Source: a virus. Taken from it: DNA of 36,520 nt. The stretch is from the IMG/VR virus record IMGVR_UViG_3300040809_000504, positions 1 through 36,520 of that record; one strand, given 5' to 3'. This document shows positions 2,672-35,637 of the stretch, in pieces. Below the pieces are notes generated by a model that worked only from the letters and a program-made list of their open reading frames with translations, was not told where the DNA came from and ran no database searches. Position 1 is the first letter of the stretch, and each line of letters begins with the position of its first letter. The translations under genes and the position numbers were made by a program.

Positions 2672-3028
2672 ATGTCTATTTTTCAATGCGAAAACTGCGG
2701 TTGTGCTGAAAATACAGCTTGTTCAGAACAAGGTTTTAAGATGATGTCGGAATTATTCGACTGGTCATACAACCCAAGTTTAGAGGGTAAATTACTTTGT
2801 CGCGCATGTGGGCCTACACATTATAAAGGTGGCTCAAAAATGAAAGCTGATCACTGGGGTGAATATGGCGTTTGGCACAACCGATTTGAAAGACGCTATT
2901 TGCCACGCGGTGAATTTAAAACCAACAACCAGGGCAATTTAGAGCACATTGAGTCAGGTTTAATTGGCAATGAAGCATACAAACAATTTGCGCGTTCAGA
3001 GCCTTACCCAATGAAAGAAGCCGTATAG
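2672..3028 (+). CDS. Hypothetical Cys-rich (CxxC...CxxC) protein.
   Basis: 118-aa ORF with an AGGAAA SD. It carries a CENCGC...CRAC putative zinc ribbon. Confidence 0.55.
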   Translation: MSIFQCENCGCAENTACSEQGFKMMSELFDWSYNPSLEGKLLCRACGPTHYKGGSKMKADHWGEYGVWHNRFERRYLPRGEFKTNNQGNLEHIESGLIGNEAYKQFARSEPYPMKEAV

Positions 3029-3038
3029 GAGATTTTCG

Positions 3039-3278
3039 ATGACTGTAAAAGTTCAGGTACTCGGTGTAGGTTCGCGCTTAGGCTTAAGTGTTGCAGCGTT
3101 AATTGCTTCACTTCCCCAATGCAAAGTCGAAGTTATTGACACAGTAGACACCCCAAAACCTAACTTTGGCTCAGTCGGTGCGATTGACTTGGGTAAGCAA
3201 GTAGCCATTCAAAATGAGCGAGAATGGCGTGGCGGGAGCCGCAAAAAAGGTGGCCGCTACAAGTGGCCTAGACGTTAA
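3039..3278 (+). CDS. Hypothetical protein.
   Basis: 79-aa ORF with a TAGGAG SD 6 nt upstream and a basic C-terminus. Confidence 0.45.
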   Translation: MTVKVQVLGVGSRLGLSVAALIASLPQCKVEVIDTVDTPKPNFGSVGAIDLGKQVAIQNEREWRGGSRKKGGRYKWPRR

Positions 3279-3300
3279 TTTTATAAATGGGAAATTTTCG

Positions 3301-3420
3301 ATGACCAGAAAATTGAACAATAAAATGCGTGAAGAATGGTTATTTTTACGTTTCATGCACGAAGCTCCAGAATCAGAAAAAATTAAATGGTTCATCGAAG
3401 TTAATTTTAAAAACTCTTAA
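3301..3420 (+). CDS. Hypothetical small protein (39 aa).
   Basis: Internal ATG of track ORF 3214..3420. It was chosen because it avoids overlap with 3039..3278 and shares the upstream motif GGGAAATTTTCGATGAC. Confidence 0.3.
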   Translation: MTRKLNNKMREEWLFLRFMHEAPESEKIKWFIEVNFKNS

Positions 3421-3436
3421 ATGGGAATTTTTGAGC

Positions 3437-3766
3437 ATGACGGAACTGACCGAAAAAGAAATAAACACTCGAATTGCTAAAGCTGTAAAGCCTTTAAACC
3501 TTGTATTCGATAATGATGGTTTCCCAATGGTTCATAACGAGTACATCGATGCGTATTTCGATTTGAACTACTGCAACGATTGGTCACTACTCATGCCTTT
3601 GGTTATAGAAAATCGCATTGGTTTTGATCCGCTCCCGATAGATAACAGTGATGCTACTTGTTGGAGCAATGTTTCAGCCATAAAAACCACAGATAAAAAT
3701 CACAAACTGGCTTTGGCTAAATGCGTCATGTTTTTAGTCGAAGAAAAAGCCGCTATTTCAAACTAA
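3437..3766 (+). CDS. Phage ABA-sandwich / DUF2591-like protein.
   Basis: 109 aa from MTELTEKEIN. The YCNDWSLLMPLVIENRI segment resembles the conserved core of that family (recalled motif). Confidence 0.45.
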   Translation: MTELTEKEINTRIAKAVKPLNLVFDNDGFPMVHNEYIDAYFDLNYCNDWSLLMPLVIENRIGFDPLPIDNSDATCWSNVSAIKTTDKNHKLALAKCVMFLVEEKAAISN

Positions 3767-3780
3767 GTAAAAGGTAAATC

Positions 3781-4005
3781 ATGGAAAACCAACACAAGAA
3801 AATTAAAGGCTATCGTGACTTGTCACAAGCTGAAATTGATTCAATGAACGATGCCAAAGCACTCGCTGAAAAAGTTGGCGTGCTAGTCGAGCAATTGCAG
3901 AGCCAAGACGGGTTAGATCAGCGCTGGATTGCAACTGCTAAAACGGATTTGCAAAAGGGTTTTATGTCTCTAATTCGTGGCATAGCACAACCAACAACGT
4001 TTTAA
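3781..4005 (+). CDS. Small helical protein resembling the N4 gp49 / Sf6 gp66 family (PF13876), the family of the Acb2 anti-CBASS nucleotide sponge.
   Basis: 74 aa. It has an N-terminal KGYRDLSQAEIDSMNDAK and a C-terminal RWIATAKTDLQKGFMSLIRGIAQPTTF. The motif match is from memory. Confidence 0.55.
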   Translation: MENQHKKIKGYRDLSQAEIDSMNDAKALAEKVGVLVEQLQSQDGLDQRWIATAKTDLQKGFMSLIRGIAQPTTF

Positions 4006-4019
4006 GTTTAGTTAACCAC

Positions 4020-4046
4020 TGCGCTTGCTAATCGAGCGCATTATTA
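4020..4046 (+). terminator. Hairpin terminator candidate.
   Basis: TGCGCT-(9 nt)-AGCGCA followed by TTATTA. The U-tract is weak. Confidence 0.4.
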
Positions 4047-4137
4047 AACAAGTTTATAGATTGGAAATTTTAAATTTAACATTTAAATAGTTTAACTATA
4101 CAATATATAAACCGATTAACATTATTTGGAGAGTATT

Positions 4138-4203
4138 ATGCCTGGAAAAGAAAAGCCAGATCCAAAGGACCCAATTCCACCAAAAGACGAAGATCAAAAA
4201 TAA
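4138..4203 (+). CDS. 21-aa Pro/Lys/Asp-rich micro-ORF coupled to the downstream membrane protein.
   Basis: MPGKEKPDPKDPIPPKDEDQK. It has a GGAGAG SD, and its stop overlaps the next ATG (TAATG). Confidence 0.3.
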   Translation: MPGKEKPDPKDPIPPKDEDQK

Positions 4204-4709
4204 TGATTCAGTTTTACCTAACAAGCTTTTTAATTATGATGCTTGTTAGTGCGTGGCTTTTTGCTAAGAAGGGCGGTTTATCCGCTCTTTGTTTGATTGC
4301 GCTAACATCATTCATTTCATTTTTTGCAATTTATTACAGCTCTTTAAGTGGTGATTCATACTATCTGTCAGACTCTATACGAATATCCGCAATTATAGCT
4401 ATCACGTGTTATTGTGGCGCTTTGTCAGTCAGGCCGTTTTTGTATTTGGTTTATGCTGTGGTATTATTTTGTCATCTAATAGTTAATTTTATTGAGATTT
4501 TCAACCATTCAAACTTTCATGCTGATTACTATTATTTAACAATTACAATCATTGAGCTTTTGTTGTTTTGCTCTGGTTGCGTATTAACTCATAGGGCCAG
4601 GAGTGGCAAAAGTGCATTATATGATAATAATGCTCTTGATATTGACGATAACAACAGGCGTAGGAATTGTGTCGATCATTACACTCATCAAGAGGATTCT
4701 AAAGTATGA
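4203..4709 (+). CDS. Polytopic inner-membrane protein, function unknown.
   Basis: 168 aa with 4-5 hydrophobic segments and a hydrophilic C-terminal tail. Confidence 0.6.
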   Translation: MIQFYLTSFLIMMLVSAWLFAKKGGLSALCLIALTSFISFFAIYYSSLSGDSYYLSDSIRISAIIAITCYCGALSVRPFLYLVYAVVLFCHLIVNFIEIFNHSNFHADYYYLTITIIELLLFCSGCVLTHRARSGKSALYDNNALDIDDNNRRRNCVDHYTHQEDSKV

Positions 4710-5059
4710 GCGATCTGATAGAGAAGATTAGCGAATTAGAAAAGAAAGTTGATCATGTTGATGATAAGTTTACAAATGCGCTTGATAAACTTAGTGAGTC
4801 AATGGAGAAGGTTGCAGTTGTAATAGTTAAGCTAGACAATCAAGAAAAAGCACAAGAAGCAATTCATGCAAGACAAGATGAGTTAACAGAAAAGCTTCAC
4901 AATGTAGATAAGCAAGTTGCAGTTGCAAAGCAAGCAGCAGACGCGACAGCAAAAAACACTCAAGAAATTAAAGCGACAATGAATAAATTGTTATGGGTGT
5001 TTATCAGTGGTTTTTTCAGCCTGATTGTAACTGGCGTTGTTATGGCGCTAAAGTCTTGA
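4706..5059 (+). CDS. Coiled-coil protein with a C-terminal TM anchor.
   Basis: 117 aa. The N-terminal 90 aa are heptad-rich. The C-terminus LLWVFISGFFSLIVTGVVMAL is hydrophobic. There is an ATGA overlap with the upstream gene. Confidence 0.6.
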   Translation: MSDLIEKISELEKKVDHVDDKFTNALDKLSESMEKVAVVIVKLDNQEKAQEAIHARQDELTEKLHNVDKQVAVAKQAADATAKNTQEIKATMNKLLWVFISGFFSLIVTGVVMALKS

Positions 5060-5125
5060 TTAATTAATTTAATAAGCTAATATTAATAGGCTTATTTCAC
5101 AGTTGTATACTTTGAACGGTTTTGG

Positions 5126-5153
5126 CCTCAACTTAACAAGTTGGGGTTTTTTT
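5126..5153 (+). terminator. Rho-independent terminator.
   Basis: CCTCAACT-(5 nt)-AGTTGGGG followed by T7. Confidence 0.75.
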
Positions 5154-5186
5154 ATGCCTAAATTAAAAATAAATTTAAAATAACTA

Positions 5187-5214
5187 TTTACTTATATAAT
5201 TAAATCATTATAAT
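5187..5214 (+). promoter_or_regulatory. Sigma70-like promoter: TTTACT, 16-nt spacer, TATAAT.
   Basis: -35 at 5187-5192 and -10 at 5209-5214, upstream of the ATG at 5263. Confidence 0.55.
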
Positions 5215-6312: not shown

Positions 6313-6840
6313 ATGACATTAAAAAACGCAAAACACGAAATGTTTTGTCTTGAGTTTATAGTTGATTTAAACGCTACAGGAGCAGCAAGGAGGGCTGGTT
6401 ACAGCGAAAAGACAGCTAACAGGATAGGGTATCAATTACTTGCTCGCGAAGACGTTAACAATCGCATAGTCAAGCTAAAGCAAGAGAGAAGTAACAAAAC
6501 AAAAATCAATGCCGAATGGGTTCTTAATCAGCTTGTCGAAATACACAATTTAGATGTTATAGATATTCTTGATAACTGCGGCAATTTCAAATCAATATCA
6601 GACTGGCCAATGCAGTGGCGAAGATATCTTTCTGGTTTAGATATTTCAGAAATAAACATCAGCGACACAGAAACAATTATCAGAAAAATAAAGTGGCCAG
6701 ACAAAGTTAAGAATCTTGAGCTAATAGGCAAACATGTTGACATACAAGCCTTCAAAGAAAAAGTTGATACAAATATATCTGGCGACTTAAAGGTAGAGCA
6801 AACGTTAGCGGAGCGCCTGAGCGGTGGAAGTAAGCGCTAA
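6313..6840 (+). CDS. terS: Terminase small subunit (Terminase_2-like).
   Basis: N-terminal KHEMFCLEFIVDLNATGAARRAGYSEKTANRIGYQLL is the classic TerS HTH signature. It lies immediately upstream of TerL. Confidence 0.85.
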   Translation: MTLKNAKHEMFCLEFIVDLNATGAARRAGYSEKTANRIGYQLLAREDVNNRIVKLKQERSNKTKINAEWVLNQLVEIHNLDVIDILDNCGNFKSISDWPMQWRRYLSGLDISEINISDTETIIRKIKWPDKVKNLELIGKHVDIQAFKEKVDTNISGDLKVEQTLAERLSGGSKR

Positions 6841-8401
6841 TCATTTAAAAGCCAATCACTACATATCAAATATAGATAATCTGAATCATGAGGAGTTAGC
6901 GGAAGCTTTGACTTATAAATGGTTTAGGTTGAACACTCTTTATCACATCAAAAACAAGCAAGGAAAAAAAACGCTTTTTACTCCAAACGAGGAGCAAGAG
7001 CAAAGGTACTTAGATCATCATGGTAGAGATATAATATTAAAAGCTCGCCAGCTTGGATTCACTACATTTGAAATGATAGACAGCCTTGATGATTGCCTTT
7101 TTATTGATGATTATAATGCTGGTTGCATATGTCACAACTTAGATAGCGCTAAAGATATATTTAGAAACAAGATAAAATACGCTTACGAAAATATAGCTGA
7201 ATCACAAATACAACTACTCGCAGAGCTTGGCTTTAACTTACCGACACCAAAAAGTGACAAAGGCAACGCCTATGTATTTACTAACGGTTCAGCGATAAAA
7301 GTATCAACATCATATCGTGGCGATACACTTCAAAGACTTCATGTTTCAGAATTTGGAAAGATATGCAAAAAGTACCCTGATAAAGCAAAAGAAATTGTAA
7401 CAGGTGCTTTTGAAGCTGTTCCGGCTGATGGTGGAATAATCACGTTGGAGTCTACAGCGGAAGGGAAAGAAGGTTATTTTTATGATTATTCCGAATCAGC
7501 AAGGAAGAAAAAGCAGTTAAATAAGGACTTGTCGATACTTGACTTTAATTTTCACTTTTACAGTTGGTGGAAAAGAGAGGAGTATTCGATTAAAGGTGAT
7601 ATTGCAGAAAGCCTAAAACCATATTTTACTGAACTGGAAAAAAAACATCATATTGCATTAACTGACGGGCAAAAAGCGTGGTATAGCGCAAAATGGAAAG
7701 ATTTGGGTAATGACATACGCAGAGAATACCCTTCAATACCAAAAGAAGCCTTTGAACAGTCAATAGAGGGGGCTTACTATGCTGAGCAATTCAATCAAAT
7801 CTATAGCGAGTCAAGAATAGCTGACTTAACAGGTTACGCAAATATGGCGAGCGTCAATGTAGTTTGTGATATTGGTATTGGTGATAGCACCGCGCTATGG
7901 TTTTGGCATACTGTCGGCAATGAGGTGCAAATACTTCATTATCACGAAAATAGCGGCGAAGGGCTTGGTTACTACCTAAAATACATCGAAGATACTTTAC
8001 AAAAAAACAACTGGTCATTAAAGAAAGCATACGGCCCACACGATATGAATAACAGGGAATTTGCAAGCAAGGGTAAAACAAGAAAAGAGTTAGCAAAGGA
8101 AGGTGTAGAATATAACGGCGTTAAATACTCTCTTAACTTTGATATAGTCCCTAAACTTGGTGTTGATGATGGTATACAGTTGGTCAGAACGCTTTTGCCA
8201 TCGTGTGTATTTGATGAGTCTAAATGCGAGCAAGGTATAACATGCTTAGAAAGCTACCGCAAAGAATGGAATGATAAACTTGGGTGTTGGCGCGATACGC
8301 CGCTGCATGACTGGTCATCGCATGGCGCTGATGCATTTAGATATTTGGCGGTAGTTGAAAGCAGGCGAATAACTAGCAGCAGGTTTGCTATGCGGAACTA
8401 A
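6824..8401 (+). CDS. terL: Terminase large subunit.
   Basis: 525 aa with a GTG start overlapping terS. It has an ATPase N-terminus (ILKARQLGFTT) and a nuclease-type C-terminus (HDWSSHGADAFRY). Confidence 0.85.
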   Translation: MEVSANHLKANHYISNIDNLNHEELAEALTYKWFRLNTLYHIKNKQGKKTLFTPNEEQEQRYLDHHGRDIILKARQLGFTTFEMIDSLDDCLFIDDYNAGCICHNLDSAKDIFRNKIKYAYENIAESQIQLLAELGFNLPTPKSDKGNAYVFTNGSAIKVSTSYRGDTLQRLHVSEFGKICKKYPDKAKEIVTGAFEAVPADGGIITLESTAEGKEGYFYDYSESARKKKQLNKDLSILDFNFHFYSWWKREEYSIKGDIAESLKPYFTELEKKHHIALTDGQKAWYSAKWKDLGNDIRREYPSIPKEAFEQSIEGAYYAEQFNQIYSESRIADLTGYANMASVNVVCDIGIGDSTALWFWHTVGNEVQILHYHENSGEGLGYYLKYIEDTLQKNNWSLKKAYGPHDMNNREFASKGKTRKELAKEGVEYNGVKYSLNFDIVPKLGVDDGIQLVRTLLPSCVFDESKCEQGITCLESYRKEWNDKLGCWRDTPLHDWSSHGADAFRYLAVVESRRITSSRFAMRN

Positions 8402-33722: not shown

Positions 33723-34220
33723 ATGAAAAACATTAAACGCGCACTATCAATAGCGCGAGCAACTGCAAAAAACATGTGTTACGTAAGCTTTCAAACCGTT
33801 GATTCTCGCTATCCAAAACTTGAACCAGTGAACTTTAGATCAAAAAAGTTTGCTGCGTTGAGTCAAAAAGCAAGCTCGTATTTAGACCAAGTTAAATTTA
33901 CTTGGCATATTTCAAGCTTTGTTATCTGGCGTAATAAAAAAGGAGATTTAAACGTCACTGAATGTTTAATTAACCCAGTTTTTGATAGGCGTATAGAAGC
34001 AAGTCAATATGCAAAAGCGGCAGCAATAAACAGTGTTAACAGTGATATGAACCCTGACTATATTTTAGCGGTTGGCTATATCATGCTGCCACTTGAAACA
34101 GCAAACGAAACTAAAAATTTTACTTGTGCGTTTGAGAAGTTGAGCGTTGACACTAGCGCTATATTGGATTTGTTTAATATTGATGGCTTGAAAACTGATT
34201 TTGAAAAAGGTGATGTATGA
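33723..34220 (+). CDS. Hypothetical protein, translationally coupled to the methyltransferase gene.
   Basis: 165-aa ORF whose stop overlaps the MTase ATG (ATGA). Confidence 0.55.
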   Translation: MKNIKRALSIARATAKNMCYVSFQTVDSRYPKLEPVNFRSKKFAALSQKASSYLDQVKFTWHISSFVIWRNKKGDLNVTECLINPVFDRRIEASQYAKAAAINSVNSDMNPDYILAVGYIMLPLETANETKNFTCAFEKLSVDTSAILDLFNIDGLKTDFEKGDV

Positions 34221-35074
34221 AAAAAGATGATTTAACAGTATTAAGTTTATTCGATGGTATGAGCTGCGGCAGAATAACATTAGATAAAATGGATATTACT
34301 CCGAAAGTGTACTATGCAAGCGAGCTAGACAAGTTTGCGATTAAAGAAACGGACGCCAACTGGCCTGATACTATTCAACTAGGCGATGTTACAAAGTGGC
34401 GCAAATGGGATATTGATTGGCCTAGCATTGATTTATTAATAGGTGGCTCGCCATGCCAGGGTTTTAGTTTTGCAGGTAAGCAATTAGCTTTTGATGACCC
34501 ACGTTCTGCATTGTTTTTTGTTTATGTTGATATTCTTAATCACGTTAAGAGTGTAAATCCTAATGTTAAATTCATGCTTGAAAACGTGAAAATGAAAAAA
34601 GAACACCTGAATGTAATTACTGAATATTTAGGTGTTGAACCGGTATTTATCAACTCTGCATTGGTTAGCGCTCAAAACCGCCAGCGTTATTATTGGGCTA
34701 ATTGGGATGTAACCCAGCCAGAGGGTCGTGGGATTTTGCTATCCGACATAATTGAGAGTGGTGCAGTTGATAGAGATAAATCGTTTTGTATTGACGCTAA
34801 TTATTTCAAAGGTGGATCACTTAAAAACTACCTAGAAAAGAAACGCCGTCAAATTGCGTTATGTCAAAGCGAATCTAGATTATGCGTGTTTGAAAAGAAT
34901 GATGAAAGACCAGTCAGAAAGCTTACAGTTACTGAATGCTGCCGATTGCAAGGTGTGCCAGATGACTATTTTAAAGTATCGAGCAACACTCAAGCTTACA
35001 AGATGCTAGGCAATGGCTGGCAATGCGATACTATCGAGCATATTTTTAATTGTTTATTTAATGGTGATATATGA
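34217..35074 (+). CDS. DNA (cytosine-5)-methyltransferase, orphan.
   Basis: Motif I LFDGMSCG, motif IV GGSPCQGFSFAG, motif VI ENV, motif VIII QNRQRYY and motif X GNGW are all present. Confidence 0.9.
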   Translation: MKKDDLTVLSLFDGMSCGRITLDKMDITPKVYYASELDKFAIKETDANWPDTIQLGDVTKWRKWDIDWPSIDLLIGGSPCQGFSFAGKQLAFDDPRSALFFVYVDILNHVKSVNPNVKFMLENVKMKKEHLNVITEYLGVEPVFINSALVSAQNRQRYYWANWDVTQPEGRGILLSDIIESGAVDRDKSFCIDANYFKGGSLKNYLEKKRRQIALCQSESRLCVFEKNDERPVRKLTVTECCRLQGVPDDYFKVSSNTQAYKMLGNGWQCDTIEHIFNCLFNGDI

Positions 35075-35637
35075 ACCGGGCAAAACAAAAAAAATGCAAA
35101 CAATGTAAATCACCATTCACTCCATTTAACTCACTACAAAAAGTCTGCGGCGCTAAATGCGCCAACGACTTTGCAATAGCAGAGCGTGAAAAGAAAGAAG
35201 CTAAAGCAAAGGATGATGATATTAAGCGAGTAAAGCAAAAGCTAAAGCAGTTAAGCATGAAAGATAGACCAAAAGCTTTGCGTGCAGCTCGTGAAGCGTT
35301 TAACGCATTTATTCGATACCGCGACAAAGATTTTCCATGTATAAGCTGCCAGAGACACCACAGCGGCCAATATCATGCTGGCCATTACAAAACAAAAGGC
35401 GCTCACCCTGAGTTAGAATTTAATGAGTTAAATTGCCACAAGCAGTGCGCGCCATGCAACAACCATTTAAGCGGTAACATTGTAAATTACAGGCCAAATT
35501 TAATTGATAAAATCGGGATTGATAAAGTTGAGTTGATTGAAGGTTCTCACGAACCAAAAAAATACACGGTTGATGAGTTGTGGCAAATACGCGATAAATA
35601 CAAAATTAAATTAAAAGAGTTAAAAGCGCTTGACTAA
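35071..35637 (+). CDS. ninG: NinG/Rap-family recombination endonuclease.
   Basis: The protein is collinear with lambda NinG. Shared segments are CKQC...FNAFIRYRDKDFPCISC..GQYHAGHYKT...ELNCHKQCAPCNNHLSGN. Confidence 0.85.
   Translation: MNRAKQKKCKQCKSPFTPFNSLQKVCGAKCANDFAIAEREKKEAKAKDDDIKRVKQKLKQLSMKDRPKALRAAREAFNAFIRYRDKDFPCISCQRHHSGQYHAGHYKTKGAHPELEFNELNCHKQCAPCNNHLSGNIVNYRPNLIDKIGIDKVELIEGSHEPKKYTVDELWQIRDKYKIKLKELKALD

Follow-up and report, generated by a model that had tools for sequence, protein, structure and literature searches.

Organization of the acb2 locus

The window, that is, the whole stretch of DNA analysed here, comprises 36,520 bp with terminal repeats and represents a complete virus record in IMG/VR. 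An open reading frame on its plus strand, at 3781-4005, encodes a protein of 74 residues and ends in a stop codon. This gene, referred to as acb2, is preceded by the genes for NinB, an endolysin and a holin and followed by that for the small terminase subunit, which bears out the position between the lysis and packaging genes given in the earlier note. The features of the region are as follows.

309-731: NinB, upstream of acb2
989-1375: M15 endolysin, upstream of acb2
1471-1905: holin, 3-TM, upstream of acb2
3768-3775, plus strand: Shine-Dalgarno-like sequence TAAAAGGT, 6 nt 5' of the acb2 ATG
3781-4005, plus strand: acb2 coding sequence, 74 codons plus a TAA stop; predicted short-form Acb2 cyclic-oligonucleotide sponge (translation)
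4020-4048, plus strand: G+C-rich stem-loop with an 8-bp stem (4020-4027 with 4033-4040), then UUAUUAAA (RNA folding)
6313-6840: small terminase subunit, downstream of acb2

Several small genes to which no function is assigned lie between the holin gene and acb2. On the 3' side, acb2 is followed by genes for a membrane protein without a family match and an XhlA-like protein, by more small ORFs and then by the small terminase gene. The end of the latter is overlapped by an ORF of 525 aa (6824-8401, plus strand) with no Pfam match at E<=1e-3, which, judging by its position, should encode the large terminase subunit, perhaps a divergent version. Elsewhere in the window, a C-5 cytosine DNA methylase (PF00145, E 8e-38) is encoded on the plus strand at 34217-35074, directly upstream of NinG (35071-35637), and likely serves the phage as an anti-restriction function.

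The ATG at 3781 is the first start codon 3' of the upstream in-frame stop, and M1 of the 74-aa protein aligns with M1 of its homologues. The AAAGG core of the Shine-Dalgarno-like motif occupies 3770-3774, 6 nt before the ATG. Since the upstream ORF stops at 3764-3766, leaving a gap of 14 nt to the acb2 ATG, acb2 is probably co-transcribed with the genes preceding it, and given its position after the lysis genes it may be expressed late. Downstream of the stop codon, the stem-loop at 4020-4040 has a folding energy of -13.5 kcal/mol (z = -2.47 against shuffled sequences); the hairpin does not satisfy the T-tract rule, and no intrinsic terminator was called 3' of acb2 by the consensus terminator scan. 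The stem-loop at 4020-4048 may act as a weak intrinsic terminator or else mark where the acb2 cassette ends on its 3' side.

Assignment of the 74-aa protein to the Acb2 family

Searching the 74-aa protein against Pfam with hmmscan returned PF24729 (Acb2_Tad1_hairpin) as the sole significant family, with an E value of 2.5e-16, a score of 60 bits against a cut-off of 27 bits and an alignment spanning profile positions 1-58 of 58, and a six-frame profile search of the phage gave the same PF24729 result as the protein alone. The protein also matches PHROG 717 (E 3.9e-20). Among PDB sequences, phmmer matched it to 8h2j_A (E 3.2e-17) and 8ixz_A ('p26'; E 1.2e-16), both of which are Acb2 of Pseudomonas phage PaMx33 according to the Foldseek descriptions and the literature. 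The family match of the predicted product is far beyond chance.

The family is large, with 4,204 non-redundant Acb2 homologues gathered from IMG/VR, of which 46 were assayed (Hadary et al. 2025, bioRxiv 10.1101/2025.08.24.671296). Our database search recovered 2144 homologues of the 74-aa protein at E<=1e-3. A homologue is present in 247 GenBank phage records, with 68% identity in Acinetobacter phage Ac42 and further copies in several jumbo phages, and the copies in Pseudoalteromonas are named 'Acb2/Tad1 domain-containing protein' or 'DUF7681' by NCBI.

The earlier note had proposed an Acb2-like sponge belonging to PF13876, the N4 gp49 / Sf6 gp66 family. The first half of that proposal stands, being supported by the PF24729 profile, the similarity to solved Acb2 structures, the predicted fold and the ligand-pocket residues, whereas the family label is wrong. 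With PF13876, neither the protein (E<=10) nor the six translated frames of the whole phage (E<=1) produced a match. PF13876 (Phage_gp49_66) is the family of SPO1 Acb4, a separate anti-CBASS sponge (bioRxiv 10.1101/2024.12.30.630793; a second paper agrees). The mix-up is corrected here: Acb2 corresponds to PF24729 and Acb4 to PF13876. A search with Tad2 (PF11195) found no second sponge gene in the phage.

Predicted fold

An AlphaFold2 model of the single chain, built on 120 homologues, has a mean pLDDT of 88.7 and is a two-helix hairpin, in which an extended N-terminal segment is followed by helices at residues 16-40 and 47-69 and a short tail, with no beta-strands predicted. The translation carries the terminal segments quoted in the earlier note, KGYRDLSQAEIDSMNDAK at residues 9-26 and RWIATAKTDLQKGFMSLIRGIAQPTTF at residues 48-74, and the modelled helices agree with the helical protein that it had described. 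In a Foldseek search of the PDB, the top matches to the model are the Acb2 chains 8h2j/8h2x (probability 1.00, TM 0.67-0.70, E ~5e-5), followed by T4 Vs.4 (7uq2) as the second match, below which there are only generic hairpins at E>1. The 74-aa protein is accordingly modelled with the fold of an Acb2 protomer, an extended N-terminus with two long antiparallel helices.

Conservation of the ligand pockets and selection on acb2

Two kinds of pocket have been described in PaMx33 Acb2. Cyclic dinucleotides are bound between two protomers, where Y11 provides pi-stacking and K26 a salt bridge, and the Y11A and K26A mutations both abolish dinucleotide binding (Cao et al., PMC10312549); Y11, L14 and P90 of Acb2 touch the adenine base (10.1101/2025.08.24.671296). 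Cyclic trinucleotides are bound in a separate pocket involving R67 and T74 together with the hydrophobic residues A70 and I71, and binding of cA3 is abolished by R67A and weakened by T74A (PMC10312549).

Alignment of the 74-aa protein to the PaMx43 orthologue and relatives mapped the pocket residues to Y11, L14, K26, R48, A51, T55 and P71, where R48, A51 and T55 correspond to R67, A70 and T74 of PaMx33 Acb2 and P71 to P90. All of the predicted dinucleotide-pocket residues (Y11, L14, K26 and P71) are kept; R48, A51 and T55 of the predicted trinucleotide pocket are kept as well, and I71, the other hydrophobic contact to cA3, is replaced by T52. The Tyr and Lys that the earlier note had pointed to as ligand-binding residues are Y11, found in at least 90% of 120 homologues, and K26, which is invariant among them, as are L14 and P71; R48 and T55 likewise occur in at least 90%. 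In 17 gapless viral and bacterial copies, Y11, L14, K26, R48 and P71 are present in 17/17 and T55 in 16/17. This residue conservation supports the prediction of a working protein. Moreover, acb2 is under purifying selection, as indicated by a crude pN/pS of 0.09-0.36 against the 17 gapless homologues.

By analogy with PaMx33 Acb2, the product of 3781-4005 is most probably a short (74-aa) Acb2-family sponge acting against CBASS, a reading to which we give a probability of roughly 0.88.

The short form and its ligand range

Compared with the 93-aa Acb2 proteins of PaMx33 and PaMx43, the 74-aa protein lacks a single clean block of 19 residues between the two long helices. Most of the best 120 database relatives are also 74 aa long, and the length is thus no oddity of this phage. 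One 74-aa member, Acb2_26 (IMG/VR UViG_3300010392_000616), was tested by Hadary et al. 2025 (10.1101/2025.08.24.671296), and it aligns without gaps to the protein of this phage with ~57% identity (42/74, counted by hand from the printed sequences). According to the column headers of Table S2 in that study, by which the assay outcomes were read, Acb2_26 was validated in plaque assays against the CBASS systems of Y. aleksiciae (3'3'-cUA) and E. albertii (3'3'-cGAMP) and was negative against type I and type II Thoeris and both Pycsar systems; with type IV Thoeris, transformation failed, hence there was no readout (10.1101/2025.08.24.671296). The plaque results indicate that at least one assayed Acb2 of the short form works as an anti-CBASS sponge.

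Trinucleotide binding by the 74-aa protein is likely, because R48 and T55 are both present and the Acb2 of JBD67, which keeps both equivalents, R67 and T74, binds cA3 with a KD of ~3.5 nM (PMC10312549). The affinity and spectrum for trinucleotides are less certain than those for dinucleotides owing to the change of I71 to T52 and the absence of the 19-residue insert, and the dinucleotide part of the predicted mechanism is better supported than the trinucleotide part. It is conceivable, albeit unlikely, that the protein is a sponge for dinucleotides only, with a trinucleotide pocket that is non-functional in the short form. Besides the T52 change and the missing insert, this would fit the lower conservation of the cA3-pocket residues in the family, one of which is lacking in the CHI14 and T4 homologues, themselves different in ligand spectrum (PMC10312549), and the Acb2_26 assays, which covered dinucleotide CBASS systems only. 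The retention of R48 and T55, in this protein as in the great majority of its 120 relatives, and the tight cA3 binding by JBD67 Acb2 argue against it.

A somewhat less probable reading is that the short 74-aa clade as a whole, without the insert and with Thr for I71, has a ligand spectrum unlike that of PaMx33 Acb2. Such a clade might sequester an extra signal, for example the N7-cADPR of type IV Thoeris, or might instead have an altered trinucleotide selectivity.

Still more improbable is an Acb2-fold sponge directed at the 3'cADPR of type I Thoeris or at another non-CBASS signal. There is a precedent in the family, as type I Thoeris was inhibited by 10 of the 46 Acb2 homologues assayed, and Acb2_43 binds 3'cADPR without inhibiting CBASS (10.1101/2025.08.24.671296), and the failed transformation in the type IV Thoeris assay of Acb2_26 leaves room for a further signal. 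However, Acb2_43 uses extra N- and C-terminal beta-strands with T4, H5, L6 and V7 instead of the Tyr-stacking pocket (10.1101/2025.08.24.671296), whereas the AlphaFold2 model of the 74-aa protein is free of strands and the canonical Y11, L14, K26 and P71 pocket is kept. In addition, Acb2_26, the closest tested relative, inhibited both CBASS systems and neither type I nor type II Thoeris.

Finally, the sequence-level evidence effectively excludes a generic helical hairpin, be it Rop-like or regulatory, or a degenerating remnant without sponge activity. Many proteins fold as two-helix hairpins, and chains of Rop and EsxB figure among the Foldseek matches, but these have E>1 against E ~5e-5 and probability 1.0 for the Acb2 chains. 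The sequence matches to Acb2 (PF24729, 8h2j and 8ixz) are highly significant, the ligand-contact positions are conserved and the pN/pS values are much lower than 1.

Distribution and mobility of the acb2 cassette

Within positions 3000-5200 of the window, DNA matches to other phages in GenBank are restricted to the acb2 gene. The hosts in the acb2-matching phage records are Vibrio, Pseudomonas, Aeromonas, Acinetobacter, Cronobacter and Shewanella. At the nucleotide level, the 5' third of acb2 is conserved at 77-83% in phages infecting Vibrio, Shewanella, Aeromonas and Pseudomonas, the remaining genes of which are unmatched, a conservation explained by the nearly invariant N-terminal 23 residues of the protein.

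The neighbourhood of acb2 was compared in two ways. When 19 window proteins were searched by tblastn against 84 related loci, none of the genes flanking acb2 in the window was found near acb2 elsewhere except for a 118-aa gene, in two proviruses; when same-strand ORFs within 2.5 kb of acb2 were clustered, no recurrent neighbour family occurred in more than 5 of 85 loci. An anti-defence island or a conserved neighbourhood around acb2 is ruled out by these two analyses, and the lack of conserved neighbours in the 84-85 loci shows that acb2 is a stand-alone cassette.

The closest copy of acb2, with 92% amino-acid identity, is found in proviruses of two complete Pseudoalteromonas genomes. The DNA shared by the window and this provirus copy (L008) extends from the ribosome-binding site through the stem-loop 3' of the stop codon, while the DNA farther 5' differs. 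In L008 the stem of 4020-4040 is kept, and the changes are confined to the loop and flank. From these sequence comparisons, acb2 behaves as a self-contained one-gene cassette of ~300 bp.

The 118-aa gene, which in the window precedes acb2 by ~750 bp (2672-3028, plus strand), encodes a Cys-rich protein (phrog_11861, no Pfam family). In Pseudoalteromonas proviruses (L008/L009 4293-4646; L088-L090), a homologue with 86% identity immediately follows acb2. The 118-aa gene possibly represents a further accessory or anti-defence function that travels with acb2; as the copies are closely related, shared ancestry is inseparable from functional linkage of the two genes.

Host range and relevance to CBASS

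One Pseudoalteromonas lysogen carrying the 92%-identical acb2 prophage copy has a defence island (L094; G004:C1:3049000-3062000) in which the genes GajA/GajB (Gabija) and a WYL regulator are followed by a CBASS-like operon. The CBASS locus encodes two CD-NTase cyclases, one of 405 aa and the other of 441 aa carrying an AGS-C domain, along with a 151-aa E2-like protein and a SAVED-2TM effector of 359 aa, and 3' of the operon are genes for a 402-aa protein without an assignment and a 955-aa UvrD-type helicase. The presence of this locus suggests that bacteria in which the acb2 cassette circulates use cyclic-oligonucleotide signalling. This phage therefore probably meets CBASS in its own hosts, as judged from related prophages only.

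The shared cassette hints at a marine gammaproteobacterial host. The 525-aa ORF that follows the small terminase gene in the window has no match in the Pseudoalteromonas proviruses carrying the closest acb2 copy, and because the acb2 cassette alone is common to the window and these proviruses, the assignment of the phage to a host stays weak.

Proposed mechanism and significance

Based on the structures and mutants of PaMx33 Acb2, the protomers, each composed of an extended N-terminal segment and a two-helix hairpin, would interlock to form a homohexamer. Cyclic dinucleotides, for instance 3'3'-cGAMP and 3'3'-cUA, would be caught in three pockets at the dimer interfaces, to each of which two protomers contribute Y11, L14, K26 and P71. 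Cyclic trinucleotides, for instance cA3 and cAAG, would be caught in two pockets on the three-fold axis, each built from the R48, A51 and T55 residues that three protomers supply. The products of CD-NTases would thereby be sequestered rather than degraded, so that CBASS effectors stay inactive and the phage cycle could be completed in marine hosts carrying CBASS.

The gene is clearly an ordinary member of the known Acb2 family, whose proteins sequester the cyclic-nucleotide signals on which bacterial CBASS immunity relies. The family itself, its structures, both ligand pockets and a tested 74-aa member have already been published, and no new question is raised by this copy; what is added is one more correctly annotated counter-defence gene in an uncultured marine phage. 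From the presence of acb2, CBASS signalling is probable in the hosts of this phage, in agreement with the CBASS locus in the Pseudoalteromonas lysogen with a near-identical copy.

Comparison with known systems

Among the known phage sponges, SPO1 Acb4 (PF13876) is likewise a small protein inhibiting CBASS, but it belongs to a family unrelated to that of the 74-aa protein. The hairpin domain PF24729 is, by the name of the Pfam model, common to Acb2 and Tad1 (Thoeris anti-defence 1); in contrast to Tad1, the 74 residues here amount approximately to the hairpin plus an Acb2-type N-terminal Tyr segment only, and neither the phmmer search of PDB sequences at E<=10 nor the list of 50 Foldseek matches contained a Tad1 chain. 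T4 Vs.4 (Acb2; PDB 7UQ2) shares both the family and the predicted hairpin fold with the 74-aa protein (TM ~0.63, probability 0.99-1.0 by Foldseek). It is a cGAMP sponge (PMC10312549) with ~21% identity to the 74-aa protein, and of the two paired cA3-pocket residues it has a counterpart of T74 alone (PMC10312549), whereas both counterparts are present in the 74-aa protein.

The likeness is greater to PaMx33 Acb2 (gp26; PDB 8H2J, 8H2X, 8H39, 8IXZ-8IY2 and 8J8O) and its PaMx43 orthologue, whose first 23 residues are almost identical to those here and which share 53% identity with the 74-aa protein over aligned positions. The fold of PaMx33 Acb2 is that of the model (Foldseek TM 0.67-0.70), and the equivalents of Y11/K26 and R67/T74 are all present. 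The two differ in that PaMx33 Acb2 has 93 aa, with a 19-residue inter-helix segment and I71, while the protein studied here has 74 aa, no such segment and Thr at that position; PaMx33 infects Pseudomonas, and the 74-aa protein comes from a marine phage. Acb2_26 comes from another metagenomic phage and is only ~57% identical, but it has the same length of 74 aa, the same IKGYR start and the same AQPTTF end as the protein described here.
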